DNA of 64,000 nucleotides from a bacterium (GCA_030646955.1 JAUSKM010000015.1:285-64284); one strand, 5' to 3'; positions 6,851 to 64,000 are shown, numbered from the stretch's first letter. Numbers and translations are program-made. The notes: generated by a model not told the origin, from the sequence alone.

Positions 6851-6885
6851 TTGATGTATTGAGCCAGAAGCTAGCAGCTCGCAGC

Positions 6886-7260
6886 TTATGACGCTACTGC
6901 TTCCTCCGAAACACGCCGCGCGCTTGCTCCCGCGTGCATCCCCTGCATCGTACCGGCCACTCGGTGACGCTTGCGCATCTGAAGCACCAGTTTGTCCTTC
7001 GCGAGGTCAATCGCTTCGCGGAGCGTATGATCGTCCTCCTCCGCAAGCCACTTGTATGTATCAACCGTCAGCGTCAGGGATACCTTAAACGCCTTCTTCT
7101 TGGCAAAGCGCTCCGCCCGGAACGTCAGCAACGGCTCTTCTGTTCCTGCAGGGAGACGCAGCAACGCCCGCTCAATCGTCTTTGCCTTCACGACGAAATA
7201 CTGCCGGCAGAAATGCTGGTCAAACTCACCCACCTTCTTGTAGCTGTAGGAAACCTTCAT
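6886..7260 (-). CDS. hpf: Ribosome hibernation factor (HPF/RaiA family)
   Basis: MKVSYSYKK...FKVSLTLTVDTYKWLAEEDDHTLREAIDLAKDKLVLQMRKRH matches the HPF pattern (beta-alpha-beta core, then AIDxxxDKLxxQxxK). An alternative upstream ATG lies at 7275. Confidence 0.7.
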   Translation of the reverse strand: MKVSYSYKKVGEFDQHFCRQYFVVKAKTIERALLRLPAGTEEPLLTFRAERFAKKKAFKVSLTLTVDTYKWLAEEDDHTLREAIDLAKDKLVLQMRKRHRVAGTMQGMHAGASARRVSEEAVAS

Positions 7261-24998: not shown

Positions 24999-26090
24999 TT
25001 ACTCCGCGCTCCGTAGATCCTCCCACAGTTGCTTTGCTTTCCGCGAGAGCTTCTCGGGGATCTTCACGTCTACGGTGACGATGTGATCGCCGCGGCTGCC
25101 ACTGCGCCTTGGCACGCCCTTATGTTTCAATCGAAGCTGATCACCGGGCTGCGTGCCCGTAGGGATTTTGAGCGCGACATCGCCGTCCACCGTGGGAACA
25201 TCCACGGTGTCCCCAAGTGCCGCTTGCGGCGCGCTGACTGCCACCTGCGACCGAATCGTCTCGCCGTCGCGCGTGAACCGTGCATCGGGACGCACGCGAA
25301 GACGTACGTAGAGGCTCCCCGCCGCGCCGCCACGCCCTGCTGCTTCCCCGCCGCCACGCATCTCCAGCACGGTGCCGTCGTCCACGCCCGGAGGAACCTC
25401 AATCGCGAGGTCATCCGAGCGCACCTGCGTCCCGCTCCCACGGCACGTCGCGCACTTCGTTTTTGGTACCTTGCCCGCACCCTCGCACGCCGGACACGCA
25501 CGCACCTGCTGGAATGCGCCAAAGATGGTCTGCTGGACCTGTCGCACACGACCTGCGCCGCCGCATTGGCTGCACGATTGCACGTCCGTCCCCTTCTCCG
25601 CGCCGGTCCCGTGGCACTCTCGACACTCCACCCGCCGCTCCAACGTGAGTGTTTTGCGCACGCCAAAAATCGCCTCCGCAAAATGAATCTCCATCGCAAC
25701 TTCCAAATCCCGCCCGCGCCGCTGTCGAGCGCCGCCGCGCTGCCCCATCCCAAAGATGTCGCCGAGGCCGCCGCTAAAAGCCCCCGAGAAGAGGTCCTCA
25801 AAGTTCACGCCGGTCGCCTCCGCCCAATTGGAAAAATCGCCGAAGCCCTCAAAGCCCCGGAACCCGCCCTGCGCGCGCGCCTGCTCAAACGTGTGGCCGT
25901 ACTGATCGTACTGCTGGCGCTTCTCCACGTTTGAGAGAATCTGGTACGCCTCGCTGATTTCCTTGAATTTTTCCGGATCCCCACCCTTGTCCGGATGATG
26001 CTGCTGCGCGAGCTTCCGAAATGCGCGCTTCACCTCATCCGCCGATGCGGATTTAGCAACGCCGAGTGTATTGTAGTAGTCCTTGGCCAT
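24999..26090 (-). CDS. dnaJ: Chaperone DnaJ
   Basis: J domain (YYNTLGV...HHPDKGGD), a G/F region, four CxxCxGxG zinc motifs and a C-terminal substrate-binding domain. Confidence 0.95.
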   Translation of the reverse strand: MAKDYYNTLGVAKSASADEVKRAFRKLAQQHHPDKGGDPEKFKEISEAYQILSNVEKRQQYDQYGHTFEQARAQGGFRGFEGFGDFSNWAEATGVNFEDLFSGAFSGGLGDIFGMGQRGGARQRRGRDLEVAMEIHFAEAIFGVRKTLTLERRVECRECHGTGAEKGTDVQSCSQCGGAGRVRQVQQTIFGAFQQVRACPACEGAGKVPKTKCATCRGSGTQVRSDDLAIEVPPGVDDGTVLEMRGGGEAAGRGGAAGSLYVRLRVRPDARFTRDGETIRSQVAVSAPQAALGDTVDVPTVDGDVALKIPTGTQPGDQLRLKHKGVPRRSGSRGDHIVTVDVKIPEKLSRKAKQLWEDLRSAE

Positions 26091-26099
26091 AGGGAAGAT

Positions 26100-26141
26100 G
26101 CTAGCTGCTGGCTGCTAGCAGCTAGCAGCTAGATACTAGCA
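26100..26141. repeat. Six heptamer-periodic GCTAGCW-like units directly upstream of dnaJ
   Basis: gctagct gctggct gctagca gctagca gctagat actagca. The tract starts 10 nt from the dnaJ start codon and is also self-complementary (gctagctgc / gcagctagc). Confidence 0.7.
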
Positions 26142-26239: not shown

Positions 26240-26310
26240 ACAGTCATACATGGCCACCTCTCCCCCTCTAGCTCCCCCTCCCCCCATGAGTACGTGCGGG
26301 GAGGGGGAGG
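26240..26310 (+). repeat. About 72-bp G/C-tract element, long form, copy A
   Basis: acagtcatacatggccacctctccccctctagctccccctccccccatgagtacgtgcggggagggggagg aligns along its length with 45806-45878 and with the reverse complement of 60164-60235. Confidence 0.85.
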
Positions 26311-26579: not shown

Positions 26580-28427
26580 TTATTCTTTCTCCTTGAAATC
26601 CGCATCCTTCGCCGCATCTTCTCCATCCGGCTTCTTCTCGGGTTCCTTGTCCCCCGTTCCTTGTTCCTTGTTCTCCTTGTACATCGCCTCGCCGATCTTG
26701 GAGAGTGCCGGTTGCAGCTCGTCCAATGCGCGCGTGATCGCGGCAATATCCTGACCATCTTTCACCTCGCGCAGCGCGCGCACTTTTGTCTCCACCTCGG
26801 TCTTCACCGTAGCATCCACCTTGTCGCCAAGATCGCGCAACGATTTCTCGGCGGTGTGGATGATCGTCTCCGCCTGATTGCGCAGCTCGATCAGTTCCTT
26901 GAGCTTCTTGTCCTCCTCGGCGTGCGCATCGGCGTCCTTCTTCATACGCCCCACTTCCGCATCGGAGAGCTTTGCGGAACCGGAGATGGTAATCTTCTGC
27001 TCCTTGCTGGTTGCCTTGTCCTTCGCGGACACCGTGAGGATGCCGTTCGCATCAATGTCGAACGTCACCTCCACCTGCGGGATGCCGCGCGGTGCGGGCG
27101 GGATGCCGTCGAGCATGAACCGACCGAGCGATTTATTATCCTTCGCCATGGGCCGCTCACCCTGCAGCACATGCACCTCCACGCCCGTCTGGTTGTCCGC
27201 AGCGGTGGAGAACACCTGCGATTTGCTGGTGGGGATCGTTGCGTTGCGCTCGATGAGCGGCGTTGCAACGCCGCCGAGCGTTTCAATGGAGAGCGTGAGC
27301 GGCGTGACATCCAGGAGCAGGATATCCTTCGCGCTGGAGTCCTCGCCAGAGAGCACGCTCGCCTGAATCGCCGCGCCCTTCGCGACGCACTCCATGGGAT
27401 CCACGCCGTGCTCAATCTTCTTGCCCACAATGCTCTCCACAAGCTGCTGAACGACGGGCATGCGCGTGGGACCGCCGACCAGGATGACGCGCTCGACGGT
27501 CTGCGGCGTAATGCCTGCGTCTTTCAGCGCCCGCTCCACCGGCGCGCGGCACCGATCCACCGTGGGACGCACCAGCTCTTCCAACGTCGCGCGCGTCACC
27601 TTCACCAACAGATGTTTGGGACCATCCGCCGTCGCGGAGATAAACGGGAGGTTCACCTCCGTCTCCATGGTGGTGGAGAGTTCGATCTTTGCCTTCTCCG
27701 CCGCCTCGTGGAGGCGCTGGAGCGCCATCGCGTCCTTGCGCAAATCCACGCCGTTCGTACGATGGAACTCATCCGCAATATAGTTGAGGAGCACCTCGTC
27801 CATGTCGCGGCCACCCAGTTGCGTATCGCCAGAGGTCGAACGCACCTCAAAGACACCCTGGCTGAAATTCATGACGGTCACGTCCAGTGTGCCGCCGCCC
27901 AAATCGAACACCACCACTTGTTGCTCCTTATCCGTCACCTTATCCAGACCGTACGCGAGCGCTGCCGCGGTTGGCTCGTTGATGATACGCACCACCTCCA
28001 ACCCCGCAATGCGCCCCGCGTCCTTCGTCGCCTGGCGCTGATCGTCATCAAAGTACGCCGGCACGGTAATGACGGCTTTCTCTACTGGCTCACCAAGATA
28101 CTTCTCGGCATCCTGCTTGATCTTCTGCAACACGAACGCGGAGAGCTGCTGCGGCGTGTAGTCCTTGTCCCCCGTCTTTGCCTTCCAATCCGTCCCCATC
28201 CGACGCTTGAACCCGTGGAACGTACGATCCGGGTTGGACACCGCCTGCCGCCGCGCCGGCTCCCCCACCAACCGCTGTCCGTCCTTGGTGAACGCAACGT
28301 ACGACGGAAACGCCTTCCCGCCGATCGTGGACCCTTCCGCCGCCGGAATGATGTTCACGCTCCCCCCCTGCATCACCGCCGCGGCGGAGTTGGACGTCCC
28401 CAGGTCAATACCGATGATCTTTGGCAT
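26580..28427 (-). CDS. dnaK: Chaperone DnaK (Hsp70)
   Basis: [37 protein letters not shown], plus the substrate-binding and lid regions. Start trimmed to the ATG at 28427. Confidence 0.97.
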
Positions 28428-33382: not shown

Positions 33383-34708
33383 TTATGCGGTCCACGCGCG
33401 GTCCTGGCGGCAGAGGAGTGCTGGTGCGCGGAGGGGATCGGCCATGAGCTCACGGACGATGCGCTCGAGACGGACGCCTTGGGAACCCTTGATGAGTACC
33501 ACGTCGCCGGGTGCCAGAAGATCCTGCACAAAGCGGCCCGCCTCCTGGGCGCGGGAAAATTCTAGGATGCGATCCGCGGGCATGCCCGCTGCGCGCGCGG
33601 CAGCGGCGGTCTGGCGGCTGGCGGCGCCCACACAGATCAGGTACGCAAGCGACTGCGCCGCGGCCAACCGCCCGATCCGCTCGTGCTCCTGAATCGTGAG
33701 CGTCCCCAGTTCCAACATGTCCCCAAGCACCGCGATGGCACGGCCCGGCACCGTACGCTGCTCCAGCGCGTGCAGGGCAACGGCAACCGCGAGCGGCGAT
33801 GCATTGTAGCTGTCATCCAAAAGCGCCGTCTCCTTGATGCCGGGGATGATACGCATGCGACCCGGCGCCGGTTGGTACTGCCGCAGCGCGTGCGAAATCT
33901 CCACGAGGTGCATGCCCAGTCCCAAACCCACCGCCGCCGCGGCAAGCGCCGCGTGCATGTGCCCTGCCCCCAGACACCCCGGGAGATGCACCGGCACCGT
34001 TGCGCCCCCTGCAACAATTTTGAACGTCATCCCGCCCGGAAGCACAAATCCTCCTGTCGTTCCTTGTTCCTTGTCCCTTACCCCTTGTGCTCCAGAGGTA
34101 ACTCGGTACTCGATCCCGCGTACGTCCGCATCCTCGTGCGTGCCGTACGAAATGACGCGCGCCTTCGTGCGCTCCGTCATCGCCCACACATGGATATCAT
34201 CACGGTTGAGTACTGCGATGTCATCGCGGCTGAGCACGCTGACGAGCTTGCGTTTCTCGCTCGCCACGCGGTCCACGGACTTAAAGAATTCCGTGTGCGC
34301 TGCGCCAACCGCCGTGACGACAGCAACGTGCGGACGCGCAATGCGTAGGAGGTAGCTCAAATCGCCTGGATGGTCCGCGCCATACTCCAGCACGAGCGCC
34401 TCCGGGTACCGCAACCCACGCACGGCTGCGTACCACTTCCCCCGCGCAAGCAACGCAACCCAGCGCCACGGCGACCGGCCGGGCGCCCGCCCTCCGATGA
34501 TCGCCACCGGCAACCCAATCTCGTTGTTGTAGTTCTTCGGCGCAGCGCGAACGTCCCAATCGGCGTCCAACACCGCACGGATTGCCTCACGCGCCGACGT
34601 TTTCCCCACACTGCCCGTGATACCCACGATCAGCGGTTGCTGCCGCCGCACCACTGCACGGGCGAGGAAGGCGAGGAGTGATTCCAAGAATGTACGCATA
34701 GCGATCAA
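33383..34708 (-). CDS. murF: UDP-MurNAc-tripeptide--D-Ala-D-Ala ligase
   Basis: GITGSVGKTSAREAI P-loop, the Mur ligase middle and C-terminal domains, and dcw context after ftsI. Confidence 0.9.
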   Translation of the reverse strand: MIAMRTFLESLLAFLARAVVRRQQPLIVGITGSVGKTSAREAIRAVLDADWDVRAAPKNYNNEIGLPVAIIGGRAPGRSPWRWVALLARGKWYAAVRGLRYPEALVLEYGADHPGDLSYLLRIARPHVAVVTAVGAAHTEFFKSVDRVASEKRKLVSVLSRDDIAVLNRDDIHVWAMTERTKARVISYGTHEDADVRGIEYRVTSGAQGVRDKEQGTTGGFVLPGGMTFKIVAGGATVPVHLPGCLGAGHMHAALAAAAVGLGLGMHLVEISHALRQYQPAPGRMRIIPGIKETALLDDSYNASPLAVAVALHALEQRTVPGRAIAVLGDMLELGTLTIQEHERIGRLAAAQSLAYLICVGAASRQTAAAARAAGMPADRILEFSRAQEAGRFVQDLLAPGDVVLIKGSQGVRLERIVRELMADPLRAPALLCRQDRAWTA

Positions 34709-45729: not shown

Positions 45730-45878
45730 CCCCTCCCTCCCCGCGCGTACTCGCGGGGGGAGGGAGGGTTAGGGAGGGAGAGGTGGGACGGAATGGCAAC
45801 ATGGTACAGCCCATCCATAGCCACCTCTCCCCCTCCTGCTCCCCCTCTCCCCACGAGTACGTGCGGGGAGGGGGAGGG
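45730..45878. repeat. Inverted pair of long G/C-tract elements (about 150-bp composite palindrome)
   Basis: 45730-45803 (cccctccctccccgcgcgtactcgcggggggagggaggg...) is in the same orientation as 60164-60235. 45806-45878 (acagcccatccatagccacctctccccctcctgctccccctctccccacgagtacgtgcggggagggggaggg) is in the opposite orientation. Confidence 0.85.
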
Positions 45879-60071: not shown

Positions 60072-60163
60072 ACCGTCTCCATTCTCGCACACGAACGGCG
60101 CCAAAGCAACTCCTCAAAAAAGTAGGTTCTTCCGGCTTTCGTGTCGCCGAGTACGCTTCTTAT

Positions 60164-60235
60164 CCTCCCCCTCCCCGCACGTACTCGTGGGGGGAGGGGG
60201 AGCGAGAGGGGGAGGGGTGGCTATGGATGGGCTGT
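60164..60235 (-). repeat. About 72-bp G/C-tract element, long form, copy C
   Basis: The reverse complement acagcccatccatagccacccctccccctctcgctccccctccccccacgagtacgtgcggggagggggagg is nearly identical to 45806-45878. Confidence 0.85.
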
Positions 60236-60881: not shown

Positions 60882-60902
60882 ACCCCACGTATTGCTAGCA
60901 GC

Positions 60903-61925
60903 TTACCGCGGCAGGTGTGCGTTAATCTCCTCACTGCGTGTGCGGAGCTGCTCCACCCAAGCACGGTGCTCTTGATACCAGCGCACGGTGCGCTCGAGTC
61001 CTTCATGGAACCGATCGCGCGTGTACACCGGCTTCCACCCCAGCGCCTCGATCTTCGTGGCATCAATTGCGTACCGGCGATCGTGCCCCGGACGATCCTC
61101 GACAAACTGCATGAGCGATCGCGGTTTCCCAAGAATCTCAAGAATTGCGCCCACGACATCAAGATTGTTCCGCTCATTGTCCACGCCAATATTGTACACC
61201 GCCCCCGGAATCCCCGTACGGAGGAGCGTATCGAGCGCCGCGCAGTGATCCTCCACATGAATCCAGTCGCGCACGTTCTTACCATCGCCATAGATCGGCA
61301 CTGGCTGGCCAGCCATGGCGCGGAAAATCACAAACGGAATCAGCTTCTCTGGGAATTGGTACGGGCCGTAGTTATTGGAGCAGTGCGTCACGATCACCGG
61401 TGCCTTATGCGTCACGACGTAGGAACGACAGAGCAAATCACCGCCCGCTTTTGCCGCGGCGTACGGAACATTGGGTGCAAACGCGGTGTCCTCCGTGAAC
61501 CGTAATCCGTCATCCAATGCGAGCGTCCCGTACACCTCATCCGTCGAGACCTGTACGAACCGCTCGATGCCCTCCTGGCGAACCACATCAAGCAGGGTGC
61601 AGACGCCGAGGACGTTCGTGGTGACGAATGCCCGTGCACCAAGGTGAATGGAGCGATCCACATGCGTCTCTGCTGCAAAGTTGATGATGGTATTGATGTG
61701 GTGTTCCCGCACCGTCTGCAGCACCTGCGTCGCATCGGTGACGTCACCCCGCACGAACGCGTAACGCGGACCAAACTGCGCCTCAACATCCGCGAGGTTT
61801 TCAGGATTCGCTGCGTACGTCAACGCATCGAAGTTCACGATCGTCACATCCGCGTGCGCGTTGAGCACAGAGCGGATGAAATTCGAGCCGATGAATCCGG
61901 CGCCGCCGGTGACGAGCAGTCGCAT
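60903..61925 (-). CDS. rfbB: dTDP-glucose 4,6-dehydratase
   Basis: MRLLVTGGAGFIGSNF, VSTDEVYG, PYAAAKAGGD. Start trimmed to the ATG at 61925. Confidence 0.92.
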   Translation of the reverse strand: MRLLVTGGAGFIGSNFIRSVLNAHADVTIVNFDALTYAANPENLADVEAQFGPRYAFVRGDVTDATQVLQTVREHHINTIINFAAETHVDRSIHLGARAFVTTNVLGVCTLLDVVRQEGIERFVQVSTDEVYGTLALDDGLRFTEDTAFAPNVPYAAAKAGGDLLCRSYVVTHKAPVIVTHCSNNYGPYQFPEKLIPFVIFRAMAGQPVPIYGDGKNVRDWIHVEDHCAALDTLLRTGIPGAVYNIGVDNERNNLDVVGAILEILGKPRSLMQFVEDRPGHDRRYAIDATKIEALGWKPVYTRDRFHEGLERTVRWYQEHRAWVEQLRTRSEEINAHLPR

Positions 61926-61944
61926 ACGGGAAAACAACGGACGG

Positions 61945-62331
61945 TCATGAAATATCGTGACGCAACGCAAGCGCCAGCGATGCCACCGCAACCGTGGTGA
62001 GCAGTGCCATCACCGCACCCAGCGTGCCAAAACCAAGTTGCCACCACACCCATGCGCCGGCAGCAAGCGCCGCAACGATACCCCAACACACAACCATCCG
62101 GGACGGCACGGACGGCTGCGCGGACTTTGGTGCCAGCATAGCTACCCCAATGAGCGCGAGCAAGAACGCGTGCGGATTGACGACGCTGCGGACGAATCCC
62201 GGTTCAAGATCGTCCAACAACAGAAGGAGCGGGTAGAGCACGAGCAACACCGGCAGCGCCTCGCCCGCGAGGAAGTGAACGAACTGCAGCGACGAGTGAC
62301 GCATACGGTGACGCATCATCATAGACACCAT
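61945..62331 (-). CDS. Hypothetical small membrane protein
   Basis: 128 aa with about 3-4 hydrophobic helices. Start uncertain. It overlaps the upstream gene's end by 13 nt. Confidence 0.4.
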   Translation of the reverse strand: MVSMMMRHRMRHSSLQFVHFLAGEALPVLLVLYPLLLLLDDLEPGFVRSVVNPHAFLLALIGVAMLAPKSAQPSVPSRMVVCWGIVAALAAGAWVWWQLGFGTLGAVMALLTTVAVASLALALRHDIS

Positions 62332-62918
62332 GGACCCAGACAGAAGGGGTCACGTTCGGCAGTCACCGAGAGAGCACGGATGCGAATCGGACGCGCCGGA
62401 GACACCCCCGGCGCGGAAAAAATGACCCGATACACGTTCCGCTCCACCTGCCAGGCACGCTGGAGCGTGAATGGAATCTGGACCACACCAACCTCGCCAG
62501 GCAACCCGGCGCGCACGACATCCGGATGCTGCACGAGTACGGCATCACCAACAACGCCCCCATCCACGGTCTTCACATCAAACTCCCACCGCTCCGGATG
62601 CGTCCGCACGCCCACGCGGAATGGCACCTGGTGCTCATTATCGTACCGTAGCGTCACCGTGATGCGACGGAACCACCGCGGGAGCCGTAGGTTCACATAC
62701 ACCGGCTCGCCCACCAGGAACACCTCGGACTGCTCCGGCTGTCGCGCAACGCGCGGCGGCGGTCCAAATGCGGTCAGGTACGGCGTTGTGCGATTACGCA
62801 CCACGTCCGCCTCCACCGTCACCGTTCGGTCCAGCTGCACATCACGCAACGCGAGCACGACAAGGAGCGCTGCAGCAGCAGCCCAGAGCACCGCTCGAAG
62901 TACGCGCTGCTTCGTCAT
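62319..62918 (-). CDS. Hypothetical anchored/exported protein
   Basis: MTKQRVLRAVLWAAAAALLVVLAL provides the anchor, followed by a beta-rich domain. Its start overlaps the GT39-like gene's stop by 4 nt (coupled). Confidence 0.5.
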   Translation of the reverse strand: MTKQRVLRAVLWAAAAALLVVLALRDVQLDRTVTVEADVVRNRTTPYLTAFGPPPRVARQPEQSEVFLVGEPVYVNLRLPRWFRRITVTLRYDNEHQVPFRVGVRTHPERWEFDVKTVDGGVVGDAVLVQHPDVVRAGLPGEVGVVQIPFTLQRAWQVERNVYRVIFSAPGVSPARPIRIRALSVTAERDPFCLGPWCL

Positions 62919-64000
62919 AGCAATCCCATGCGATAGAGCTGTTCGCCGAACGGCATCGTTCCAACGGACGTGAACGCAAATCCGACAACTGCGGGCCTGC
63001 TTGGAGCGTACCAGTAGACAGGCGCCGTTTCCACAAGGACAGCAAGATGTCGCAGGAAGTCCGCGTCGGGTTCCTCTGAAACAAAGACGACTGCGCGTTC
63101 CGGGAAGAACGTCTTGTCCATACGGTGCGAGACGATGATCGCATCGTCGGGCGTTTCCGCAATGACCGCGCGGGCGCGTGTGCGGTGCTCAACGATCCCC
63201 CGACGCTGCTGGGCAAGCCCTTCGGTTGTACCAGTGACGATCTGCTGACTGCTCACGAGCGCGATGCCGAGCACCAGGAGCATCGCAATGATCTGCCGGA
63301 GGCGCCCGACGCGCGACACGATCCGCAAAAACCCTGTCGCCGCCCATGGCGCAAGAAGGAACACCATCGGCAGCCAGTACCGTGCGTACGAAATCGTGAA
63401 CACATTTGTTGCTCGCACCAATGGATCCGCAAGCGTCCAGGATCCGTAGAACACCATAAGCCACGCTGACAATAGAACGGTGATCATTCCTTCCCGCTTG
63501 CAGCTTGCGGCTTGCAGCTTGCGGCTTGCAGTGAACAATCCAACAATCGCAAGCGCCATGAACCACCAATACGGCACCACCATGTACTGCCAGAAGCGCT
63601 GGAGCGACGCGACAATATCCACGCCGAACGGAAAGAGGAACGCACGAATCATGCCGCCCGATCCCGCAAACTCTGTCGGCGGCGCACCGCCTGCATGCAG
63701 GAGTGCATAGCCGGTGGTGAACGGGGATCCGTACAGTTGTGCATTGAGGATGAGAATCGGAATGAACGGCAGCACAAGGCCAACAACAGCGGCAACACCC
63801 TGCGCCACTGTTGCGCGCTGCCGCCATGCGATGGCGCCTGCGAGCGTCAAGACCCAGAGTGCCTCATGCGTGCGGAACGTCAGTGCAAAGCCGATCAGAA
63901 GTCCGCCGCACAACCACCACGCCACATGCCCCCGTTTGTGCAATACGGCAGCCAATCCCATGAGGAGCAGCGCCAGGAATGGAATATTCGGCAGGAACGC
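62915..64000 (-). CDS. GT39/ArnT-like polytopic glycosyltransferase, C-terminal part (5' end beyond the window)
   Basis: Multiple TM helices followed by a soluble C-terminal domain. The frame stays open upstream of the track's Met (63961) to base 64000 (..AFLPNIPFLALLL-MGLAAV..). Family assignment rests on architecture and context only. Confidence 0.6.
   Translation of the reverse strand, partial: AFLPNIPFLALLLMGLAAVLHKRGHVAWWLCGGLLIGFALTFRTHEALWVLTLAGAIAWRQRATVAQGVAAVVGLVLPFIPILILNAQLYGSPFTTGYALLHAGGAPPTEFAGSGGMIRAFLFPFGVDIVASLQRFWQYMVVPYWWFMALAIVGLFTASRKLQAASCKREGMITVLLSAWLMVFYGSWTLADPLVRATNVFTISYARYWLPMVFLLAPWAATGFLRIVSRVGRLRQIIAMLLVLGIALVSSQQIVTGTTEGLAQQRRGIVEHRTRARAVIAETPDDAIIVSHRMDKTFFPERAVVFVSEEPDADFLRHLAVLVETAPVYWYAPSRPAVVGFAFTSVGTMPFGEQLYRMGLL
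63496..63531. repeat. Heptanucleotide tandem repeat (5 copies) inside the GT39-like CDS
   Basis: The coding strand reads ctgcaag ccgcaag ctgcaag ccgcaag ctgcaag (equivalently a 14-mer x 2.5). Translated as TASRKLQAASCK. Confidence 0.85.

Follow-up and report, generated by a model that had tools for sequence, protein, structure and literature searches.

Introduction

The locus examined here raises the question of whether a short heptanucleotide tandem repeat inside a glycosyltransferase-like gene works as a phase-variation switch or is a trace of the way in which its lineage mutates. The repeat, five consecutive 7-nt units at positions 63496-63531, lies near the end of a 64,000-nt stretch of DNA from an uncultured Uhrbacteria bacterium (GCA_030646955.1, JAUSKM010000015.1:285-64284), hereafter called the window, within a gene for a polytopic membrane protein of the GT-C glycosyltransferase fold. 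An initial annotation of the window suggested that slipped-strand mispairing at this tract could toggle a surface-glycosylation gene. Such a switch could work mechanistically, and neuO of E. coli K1 offers a good precedent, but no data were found to support it here and the comparative evidence weakens it. We consider it probable that the tract is a young heptanucleotide simple sequence repeat (SSR), born by slippage and fixed in a tolerant loop of the GT-C gene, and that it is one instance of a genome-wide bias toward heptads.

According to this explanation, replication slippage at a local GCAAGC seed would have created the tract, which would have become fixed in frame, as 12 codons, in a short, basic, and probably cytoplasmic loop of the GT-C-fold glycosyltransferase. 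The tract would mirror a mutational bias of the lineage toward heptad arrays of about 3.7 to 6 units in all kinds of genes rather than serve as a purpose-built ON/OFF switch. The gene would be inactivated by slippage of 7 or 14 nt, and such slips would be expected as rare loss-of-function events rather than as a high-frequency reversible switch, because only 2.57 perfect copies of the 14-nt unit are present and the heptads are interrupted.

Anatomy of the Repeat Tract

On the plus strand, the 36-nt tract begins with GCTTGCA, alternates this unit with GCTTGCG over five heptads, and ends, after the third GCTTGCA, with a single G. The coding (minus) strand accordingly reads CTGCAAG and CCGCAAG in alternation. 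The two units differ at one site, T/C at position 2 on the coding strand, which corresponds to A/G at position 7 of GCTTGCR on the plus strand. Tandem Repeats Finder (TRF) describes the tract as a period of 7 nt repeated 5.1 times with 86% matches and as a period of 14 nt repeated 2.6 times with 100% matches. No two adjacent 7-nt units are identical, i.e., the heptads are interrupted at every unit.

When the window was compared with itself at lags of 4 to 30 nt, the longest run of matches was found in this tract: 22 consecutive positions at lag 14, the maximum at the other lags being 14. In 200 dinucleotide-preserving shuffles, the lag-14 run had a mean of 10.9 (sd 1.1) and a maximum of 15. 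The repeat is not due to chance, since the observed run exceeds those of all the shuffles. The potential of the tract to form a hairpin or slipped structure was assessed by DNA folding, and a z-score of +1.0 reveals no special structure. The tract opens on the second position of a Thr codon, and the encoded peptide is T-A-S-R-K-L-Q-A-A-S-C-K (TASRKLQAASCK, 12 codons). The coordinates and the unit given in the initial annotation are correct, as confirmed by the sequence itself, TRF, the lag run, and the shuffles, and the peptide given there matches the translation exactly.

Frame Consequences of Unit Gain or Loss

Neither 7 nor 14 is a multiple of three, and the tract lies inside the open reading frame (ORF), some 60% along the gene. 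In simulations, changes of -28, -14, -7, +7, +14, and +28 nt each truncate the protein at residues 314-431 of 513, ahead of its conserved C-terminal 190 residues, and thereby remove a conserved external loop (YGSWxxADPLVR) and the C-terminal domain, while changes of ±21 nt keep the frame. The expectation that adding or removing 7 or 14 nt would shift the frame is therefore borne out in silico. The same-strand ORF in another frame to which attention had been drawn (Table 1) does exist and does span the repeat. Its GC content at the three codon positions is 0.70/0.62/0.49 as compared with 0.63/0.47/0.69 in the real frame. As a gene it was ruled out, given that it bears no coding signature (third-position GC of 0.49 vs. 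0.69), and it is a by-product of high GC.

The Host Gene and Its Protein Family

The window holds the 3′ part of the gene. The first 456 nt, which lie beyond the window, were supplied by a Logan contig (L001, 4096 nt, from SRR13727527), and the full protein has 513 residues (P0001). MDO8425179.1 (locus tag Q7T01_01545), from a metagenome-assembled genome (MAG) at NCBI (organism given as 'bacterium', contig of 73,167 nt), is also 513 residues long, differs from P0001 by one residue, and is probably the product of the window's own gene. A search that returned 22 homologues from 5.8 billion protein clusters brought up hypothetical proteins of Candidatus Uhrbacteria with 47-57% identity and remoter homologues from Komeilibacteria and Parcubacteria with 27-31% identity. 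All family matches found fall in Patescibacteria.

No Pfam family was matched by the full-length protein at E ≤ 10 or by its part encoded in the window at E ≤ 0.01, and a sequence-profile search of the PDB returned spurious pilin matches only. An AlphaFold2 model built from a 15-sequence alignment reached a predicted local distance difference test (pLDDT) score of 82 and a predicted template modeling (pTM) score of 0.84. Foldseek matched this model to PDB structures of STT3A (E of 1.9e-6), ArnT (5ezm, 8.4e-6), ALG9 (1.3e-5), AglB (5e-5), and PglB (1.9e-3), all with a probability of 1.0; these matches have template modeling scores (TM-scores) of 0.37-0.51. PMT (GT39) structures reach only E of 0.5-1.5. 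The residues W35-P36-D37-E38-T39 are at least 90% conserved in 15 orthologues and are located in the first long loop, after transmembrane (TM) helix 1. It is in this first long, extracytoplasmic loop that GT-C enzymes carry their catalytic acidic residues. By analogy, the acidic pair D37 E38 may have a catalytic role.

Judged by the model, the protein appears to belong to an uncharacterised, GT-C-fold glycosyltransferase-like family, the likeness being one of fold. Like the candidate, ArnT (GT83), STT3/AglB/PglB (GT66), and ALG9 (GT22) have a polytopic N-terminal membrane module, and GT-C enzymes share with it a small C-terminal alpha/beta domain and the nearly invariant acidic pair in the first loop. 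Unlike ArnT, STT3, and ALG9, to which it is only 10-14% identical, the candidate has no match among Pfam families or PDB sequence profiles. The description of the product as a polytopic membrane glycosyltransferase thus stands at the level of the GT-C fold but not at that of a sequence family. Similarly, of the label 'GT39/ArnT-like', the ArnT likeness survives at the fold level, whereas GT39 finds no support, in view of the empty Pfam search and the poor PMT matches.

The Loop That Holds the Tract

The prediction that the tract falls in a loop between TM helices agrees with the model, in which helices 297-312 and 317-338 flank it with a four-residue turn between them; pLDDT falls to 60 at residues 311-320. 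Across the 15 aligned orthologues, the tract is found in a hypervariable K/R-rich stretch of roughly 8 to ~45 residues. This stretch is bounded by an invariant PYxW block at the start of one TM helix and by an invariant YGSWxxADxLVR block after the next helix. The alignment suggests a short, basic loop that tolerates almost any sequence and length. The closest orthologue (contig L024, 57% identity) carries an independent in-frame tandem duplication, 21 nt × 1.9, in the same loop (L024 11060-11099, RNDTGEI/RNDRGE). Such an independent event in the same loop points to a hot spot for tolerated repeat insertions.

The positive-inside rule suggests that the loop is likely cytoplasmic, and so does a helix count that starts from the C-terminal domain, taken to be external as it is in other GT-C enzymes. 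Helix-count parity from the N-terminus conflicts with parity from the C-terminal side, so the topology is not settled by counting.

Search for Length Variants

Length heterogeneity at the tract, which the initial annotation proposed to look for, was not found in the sequences searched. Contig L001 overlaps the window over 61889-64000 (2112 nt) with one mismatch, a single-nucleotide polymorphism (SNP; Table 1), and a second difference between the two haplotypes, I12F, lies outside the window. In both haplotypes (window/P0023 and L001/P0001) the tract is 36 nt long and identical. A flank-anchored pattern (14 nt + N{20,50} + 14 nt) had 0 matches in JGI metagenome contigs. Look-ups in protein clusters revealed no length variants and no frameshifted fragments: among the 22 homologues there was no length-variant or frameshifted allele and no second ON allele, P0001 being the only one with >62% identity. 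Neither were there OFF fragments, i.e., sequences nearly 100% identical over the N- or C-terminal part alone, in this set, in which the species is sampled twice.

A 28-nt repeat query alone retrieved exact matches in 11 metagenome contigs (L013-L023) with GC of 0.39-0.70 and without a homologue of the gene. They come from unrelated organisms and contain satellite-like YGCAAGC arrays of up to ~40 units along with many other heptads; L016 and L021, which are related, differ in their numbers of YGCAAGC units. These contigs probably derive from heptamer-rich organisms such as cyanobacteria. They show that expansion of the motif is possible elsewhere and are uninformative on the GT-C locus.

Heptad Arrays across the Lineage

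The tract is not alone of its kind. The window contains 5 period-7 arrays of at least 3 copies, as compared with 0.2 expected from shuffles. In 150 kb of Uhrbacteria-like DNA, made up of the window and six related loci, there are 18 period-7 arrays and at most 4 of any other period, including 6 and 9, the periods that coding sequence favours. Heptad arrays of 3 to 5 units are the dominant class of tandem repeat in several Uhrbacteria contigs and are absent from L003, L012, and L024. Most of them lie inside ORFs and leave these in frame. That multiples of a 7-nt unit are so often in frame poses a minor mechanistic puzzle.

Contig L025 has seven arrays in 18 kb. Two are in one GT4 gene, one (with a shorter companion of 2.4 copies) is in another GT4 gene, three are in the gene for a 628-aa membrane protein, and one is in the GT-C orthologue itself. 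A GAATACT/GAATACC array in this contig is perfect at 14 nt, the same architecture as that of the window tract. TRF detects six period-7 arrays in L002. In the window, one array lies in the gene for DnaK, another in that for a Mur ligase family protein, and a third in an intergenic region (Table 1), which indicates that arrays are not confined to surface-variation genes. The DnaK and Mur ligase arrays have the same heptad in unrelated genes, with an identical 17-mer common to both; recurrence of one unit in two genes is unexpected from purely local slippage. AAGCTGY, of the unit family of the tract, recurs in a different species and a different gene (L025 9075-9106), where it runs the opposite way relative to transcription; this argues for a process at the DNA level rather than selection on RNA or protein.

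The initial annotation allowed that the repeat might prove to be a degenerate member of a GCTAGC-type motif without variation. It does belong to a genome-wide heptad class (GCTAGCA, AAGCTGT) in which no length change was seen elsewhere, but it is not a literal copy of the intergenic GCTAGC motif. The latter idea was rejected, as the units differ and GCTAGC occurs only 6 times in the window, at or just outside gene boundaries in every case. Both belong to a broad xAGCxGC heptad family.

Arrays of comparable size appear to be stable. The gene for the 628-722-aa membrane protein contains an 8-codon insertion, built of heptads, whose length is equal in L025 (7643-7674, NSSRITHNSSL) and L002 (3299-3331, NSSLITRNSSL), two species in which the gene is ~76% identical at the DNA level; neither L024 nor L027 has it. 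Between L002 and L028, a 12.6-kb alignment with several heptad arrays and an intergenic array of 8 nt × 3.5 shows 8 SNPs and 0 indels. Comparison of L025 with L026 is uninformative, as they are 100% identical. These alignments suggest that arrays of such size persist rather than flicker. A GT4 gene in L028 that was suspected of being broken, and hence an OFF allele, proved to be intact in one frame, and the suspicion was rejected.

Weighing the Explanations

Several points weigh against a tract that merely arose by slippage and settled in a tolerant loop. Its perfect 14-nt period means that the last expansions were recent and took frame-changing steps (7 = 1 and 14 = 2 mod 3). The perfect lag-21 periodicity expected from a single +21 event is not seen. 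Since no single slip by 7 or 14 nt preserves the frame, this leaves out-of-frame intermediates or a concerted multi-unit event, and passage through an out-of-frame state is the picture expected of a contingency locus. In unit length and in gene class, a surface-glycan transferase of a rhamnose/GT2 cluster, the locus appears to match proven switches such as neuO. The length-conserved arrays of the relatives are degenerate and so naturally stabler than the perfect tract of the window. Furthermore, only two haplotypes were compared, and consensus assemblies hide minority alleles. On the other hand, in-frame arrays are present in the genes for DnaK and the Mur ligase, where viable OFF intermediates are unlikely, which suggests that concerted or rapidly compensated events do occur in the lineage.

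It seems unlikely to us that the tract is a true contingency locus, at which unusually frequent slips by 7 or 14 nt would alternate reversibly between a full-length GT-C protein (ON, the present allele) and a truncated one (OFF). Translationally coupled downstream genes may also be affected, and the outcome would be heterogeneity of the surface glycan, e.g., versus phage or in episymbiotic contact with a host cell. The unit is not divisible by three, and all changes of ±7, ±14, and ±28 nt truncate the protein before the YGSWxxADPLVR loop and the C-terminal domain; two haplotypes nevertheless carry the identical tract, and the databases searched contain no ON/OFF variants. The perfect 14-nt period indicates recent slippage, and an in-frame tract built by frame-changing steps would imply earlier out-of-frame states, but there are only 2.57 perfect units and interrupted heptads, short of the at least 3 uninterrupted units used to define candidates in H. 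influenzae (PMC2651432). The gene has RmlABCD-like and GT2 genes as neighbours in a glycan cluster, whereas similar arrays are found in the genes for DnaK and the Mur ligase, in which switching is implausible. While long YGCAAGC arrays do vary in copy number between L016 and L021, comparable arrays in the relatives are stable in length across species and strains. Both neuO (PMC13001214) and hmw1a (PMC2651432) are precedents, but proven heptanucleotide switches mostly have far more copies (3 to 53 in neuO, 13 to 38 in hmw promoters).

The same idea can be extended to the lineage. It is rather unlikely that Uhrbacteria, members of the Candidate Phyla Radiation (CPR), use heptanucleotide tracts as contingency loci that produce a clonal mosaic of surface-glycan states. 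We are just as doubtful that the loci concerned would be this tract and similar ones in GT4 genes nearby, in the gene for the 628-722-aa membrane protein, and in the GT-C genes of relatives. No less doubtful is the corollary that the perfect 14-nt period in an in-frame 36-nt tract is the footprint of a past OFF-to-ON cycle. CPR/Patescibacteria rely on cell-surface contact with their hosts and also face phage. If true, the finding would give an ultra-small episymbiotic lineage its first described phase-variation system, and it would mean that CPR/Patescibacteria diversify their envelope by a slipped-strand mechanism in the manner of host-adapted pathogens; the tracts would then serve as a marker at the level of metagenome reads.

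It is distinctly improbable that the repeat was kept for its protein product, namely for the R, K, K, and R that it adds to a cytoplasmic loop, selected for topology (the positive-inside rule) or for an interaction. The heptad read in three frames gives ASRKLQA/ASCKR, and the DNA periodicity would be only a footprint of the insertion's origin. Orthologous loops are K/R-rich as well (e.g., FRTKLRK, SKSMRK, RHRR), but the sequence itself is conserved in no orthologue. Removal of 21 nt leaves TASCKRE or TASRKRE, which resemble the shortest orthologous loops, whereas the loop is free to vary in both length and sequence. The perfect DNA periodicity, without synonymous decay, points to youth and not to long-term selection, and the same heptad family encodes unrelated peptides elsewhere, in the other orientation. 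That the tract is an assembly or sequencing artefact, i.e., a collapsed or spuriously expanded low-complexity stretch of the sort whose copy number short-read assemblers can misjudge, is scarcely credible, given that its 36 nt are below read length, that two separate, SNP-distinct assemblies (the NCBI MAG and the Logan contig from SRR13727527) give the identical tract, and that the reading frame is intact through the conserved C-terminal half.

We therefore return to a young SSR, born by slippage, as the probable explanation. At present, the value of the locus lies in an uncharacterised GT-C family with conserved synteny and in a lineage in which heptad arrays are dominant and mostly located in genes, yet in frame.

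Gene Neighbourhood and Other Repeats

The neighbouring genes of the window are all on the minus strand: those for the GT-C protein, a 199-aa protein, a 128-aa membrane protein, an RmlB-like dehydratase, an RmlC-like protein, three GT2 proteins, RmlA, and RmlD. The GT-C gene had been taken for the last gene of this cluster; the gene order and L001 place it instead at the upstream end of the minus-strand run. A premature stop in it could uncouple translation of the 199-aa gene (Table 1). Upstream, L001 has a CDP-alcohol phosphatidyltransferase gene and then a large membrane protein gene on the other strand, an arrangement that recurs in four relatives. The GT-C gene is always beside that of the CDP-alcohol phosphatidyltransferase, and the 628-722-aa membrane protein is present too where the contig reaches. 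In Uhrbacteria, a divergent 628-722-aa polytopic protein, the CDP-alcohol phosphatidyltransferase, and the GT-C protein thus constitute a syntenic module (L001 871-3666; L024, L025, L027, L028), which is joined by a ~200-aa protein in 4/5 loci. Both the 628-722-aa membrane protein and the GT-C protein are without a Pfam family.

The intergenic TGCTAGC array near dnaJ could be an element of the 5′ untranslated region (UTR), or otherwise regulatory, or merely another SSR. Shorter GCTAGCAGCT motifs are found in two other intergenic gaps (6870-6890 and 60894-60906), one of which separates the stop of the RmlB-like gene from the start of the next gene. A further intergenic element is an inverted repeat, CCTCCCCCTCCCC-(ca. 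13 nt containing ACGTAC)-GGGGAGGGGGAGG, with at least 4 copies in the window vs. 0 expected; one of these copies separates a GT2 gene from the RmlC-like gene within the glycan cluster. The element has no match in Rfam, which identifies only three tRNAs in the whole window. The element may be terminator-like or similar to repetitive extragenic palindromic (REP) sequences.

Table 1. Coordinates of the tract, its gene, and other features of the window and of related contigs (window positions unless a contig is named).
Feature	Location	Strand	Remarks
3′ 1086 nt of the GT-C-fold membrane protein gene	62915..64000	minus	residues 153-513 + stop; runs off window end
Tandem repeat (CTGCAAG CCGCAAG)x2.57	63496..63531	minus	encodes residues 308-320 (TASRKLQAASCKR) of the 513-aa protein
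SNP, window vs. L001	63539	minus	synonymous, GGA to GGG (Gly); only difference over 2112 nt; 8 nt upstream of repeat
Alternative-frame ORF, 212 aa	63189..63827	minus	spans repeat; frame entered after -14, +7, or +28 slip
Hypothetical gene, 199 aa, downstream of GT-C	62319..62918	minus	start overlaps GT-C stop by 4 nt; syntenic in relatives
Heptad array GTTCCTT (coding AAGGAAC)	26642-26673		DnaK C-terminal tail
Heptad array GTTCCTT (coding AAGGAAC)	34059-34079		Mur ligase family protein; encodes VRDKEQGT
Intergenic array TGCTAGC x6	26099-26140		ends 9 nt upstream of dnaJ start (minus-strand gene 24999-26090)
Inverted-repeat copies	26250-26310, 45730-45752, 45820-45877, 60160-60217		
Heptad arrays, L025	3137-3173, 3190-3215, 5888-5913, 7643-7674, 8926-8960, 9075-9106, 10554-10579		
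Heptad arrays, L028	2054-2086, 2561-2593, 5729-5749, 9503-9531, 10945-10977		

Comparison with Known Repeat Systems

An SSR in a glycosyltransferase gene is of a known kind, and it is the lineage that is unusual here. The initial annotation invoked phase-variable surface-glycan genes, and for heptanucleotide switches neuO of E. coli K1 (CUS-3 prophage) is a direct precedent (PMC13001214). This gene carries AAGACTC repeats in its ORF and is ON only if the copy number is divisible by three, the mechanism being slipped-strand mispairing. It has 3 to 53 perfect units, most commonly 20; OFF alleles account for 66% of the analysed genomes, and minority alleles can be quantified within a culture (PMC13001214). 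The tract resembles neuO in its 7-nt unit within the coding region of a surface-glycan-modifying enzyme gene and in the dependence of the frame on the number of units. In contrast, the neuO repeats are at the 5′ end of the gene, whereas the tract lies well over halfway into its gene, has 5 interrupted units, and belongs to an uncultured environmental bacterium.

In a survey of H. influenzae, a candidate needed at least 3 uninterrupted heptads, and strain-to-strain differences were used (PMC2651432). The hmw promoters have 13 to 38 heptanucleotide copies, and hmw1a has an (AATTTTG)14 tract within its ORF that has been associated with a frameshift (PMC2651432). These loci, including the tetranucleotide ones of the lic/lgtC type, are like the tract in being SSRs in or near genes for surface structures. 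They pass the threshold of uninterrupted units and differ between strains, while on present data the tract does neither; proven cases usually exceed 10 units.

In its make-up, the tract resembles the long SSR (LSSR) class, with units of 5-11 nt. In most surveyed prokaryotic genomes, heptanucleotides outnumber the other long SSR classes, an abundance attributed to polymerase slippage, and units divisible by three predominate inside genes (as summarised in PMC4679880). As far as that summary describes the class, the tract shares with it the unit length, a modest copy number beyond chance, a genome-wide excess, an attributed origin by slippage, and a scattered occurrence across lineages. Unlike the norm summarised there, the heptad arrays considered here are mostly within ORFs, yet in frame. 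The intergenic TAACTGA heptamers of Beggiatoaceae and cyanobacteria, which form direct arrays of 2 to 6 copies at scattered sites of a genome (PMC4679880), are resembled by the TGCTAGC × 6 array. In those organisms, one favoured unit occurs mostly in 5′ UTRs (PMC4679880), whereas in the present lineage each array has its own unit and most arrays lie within genes.

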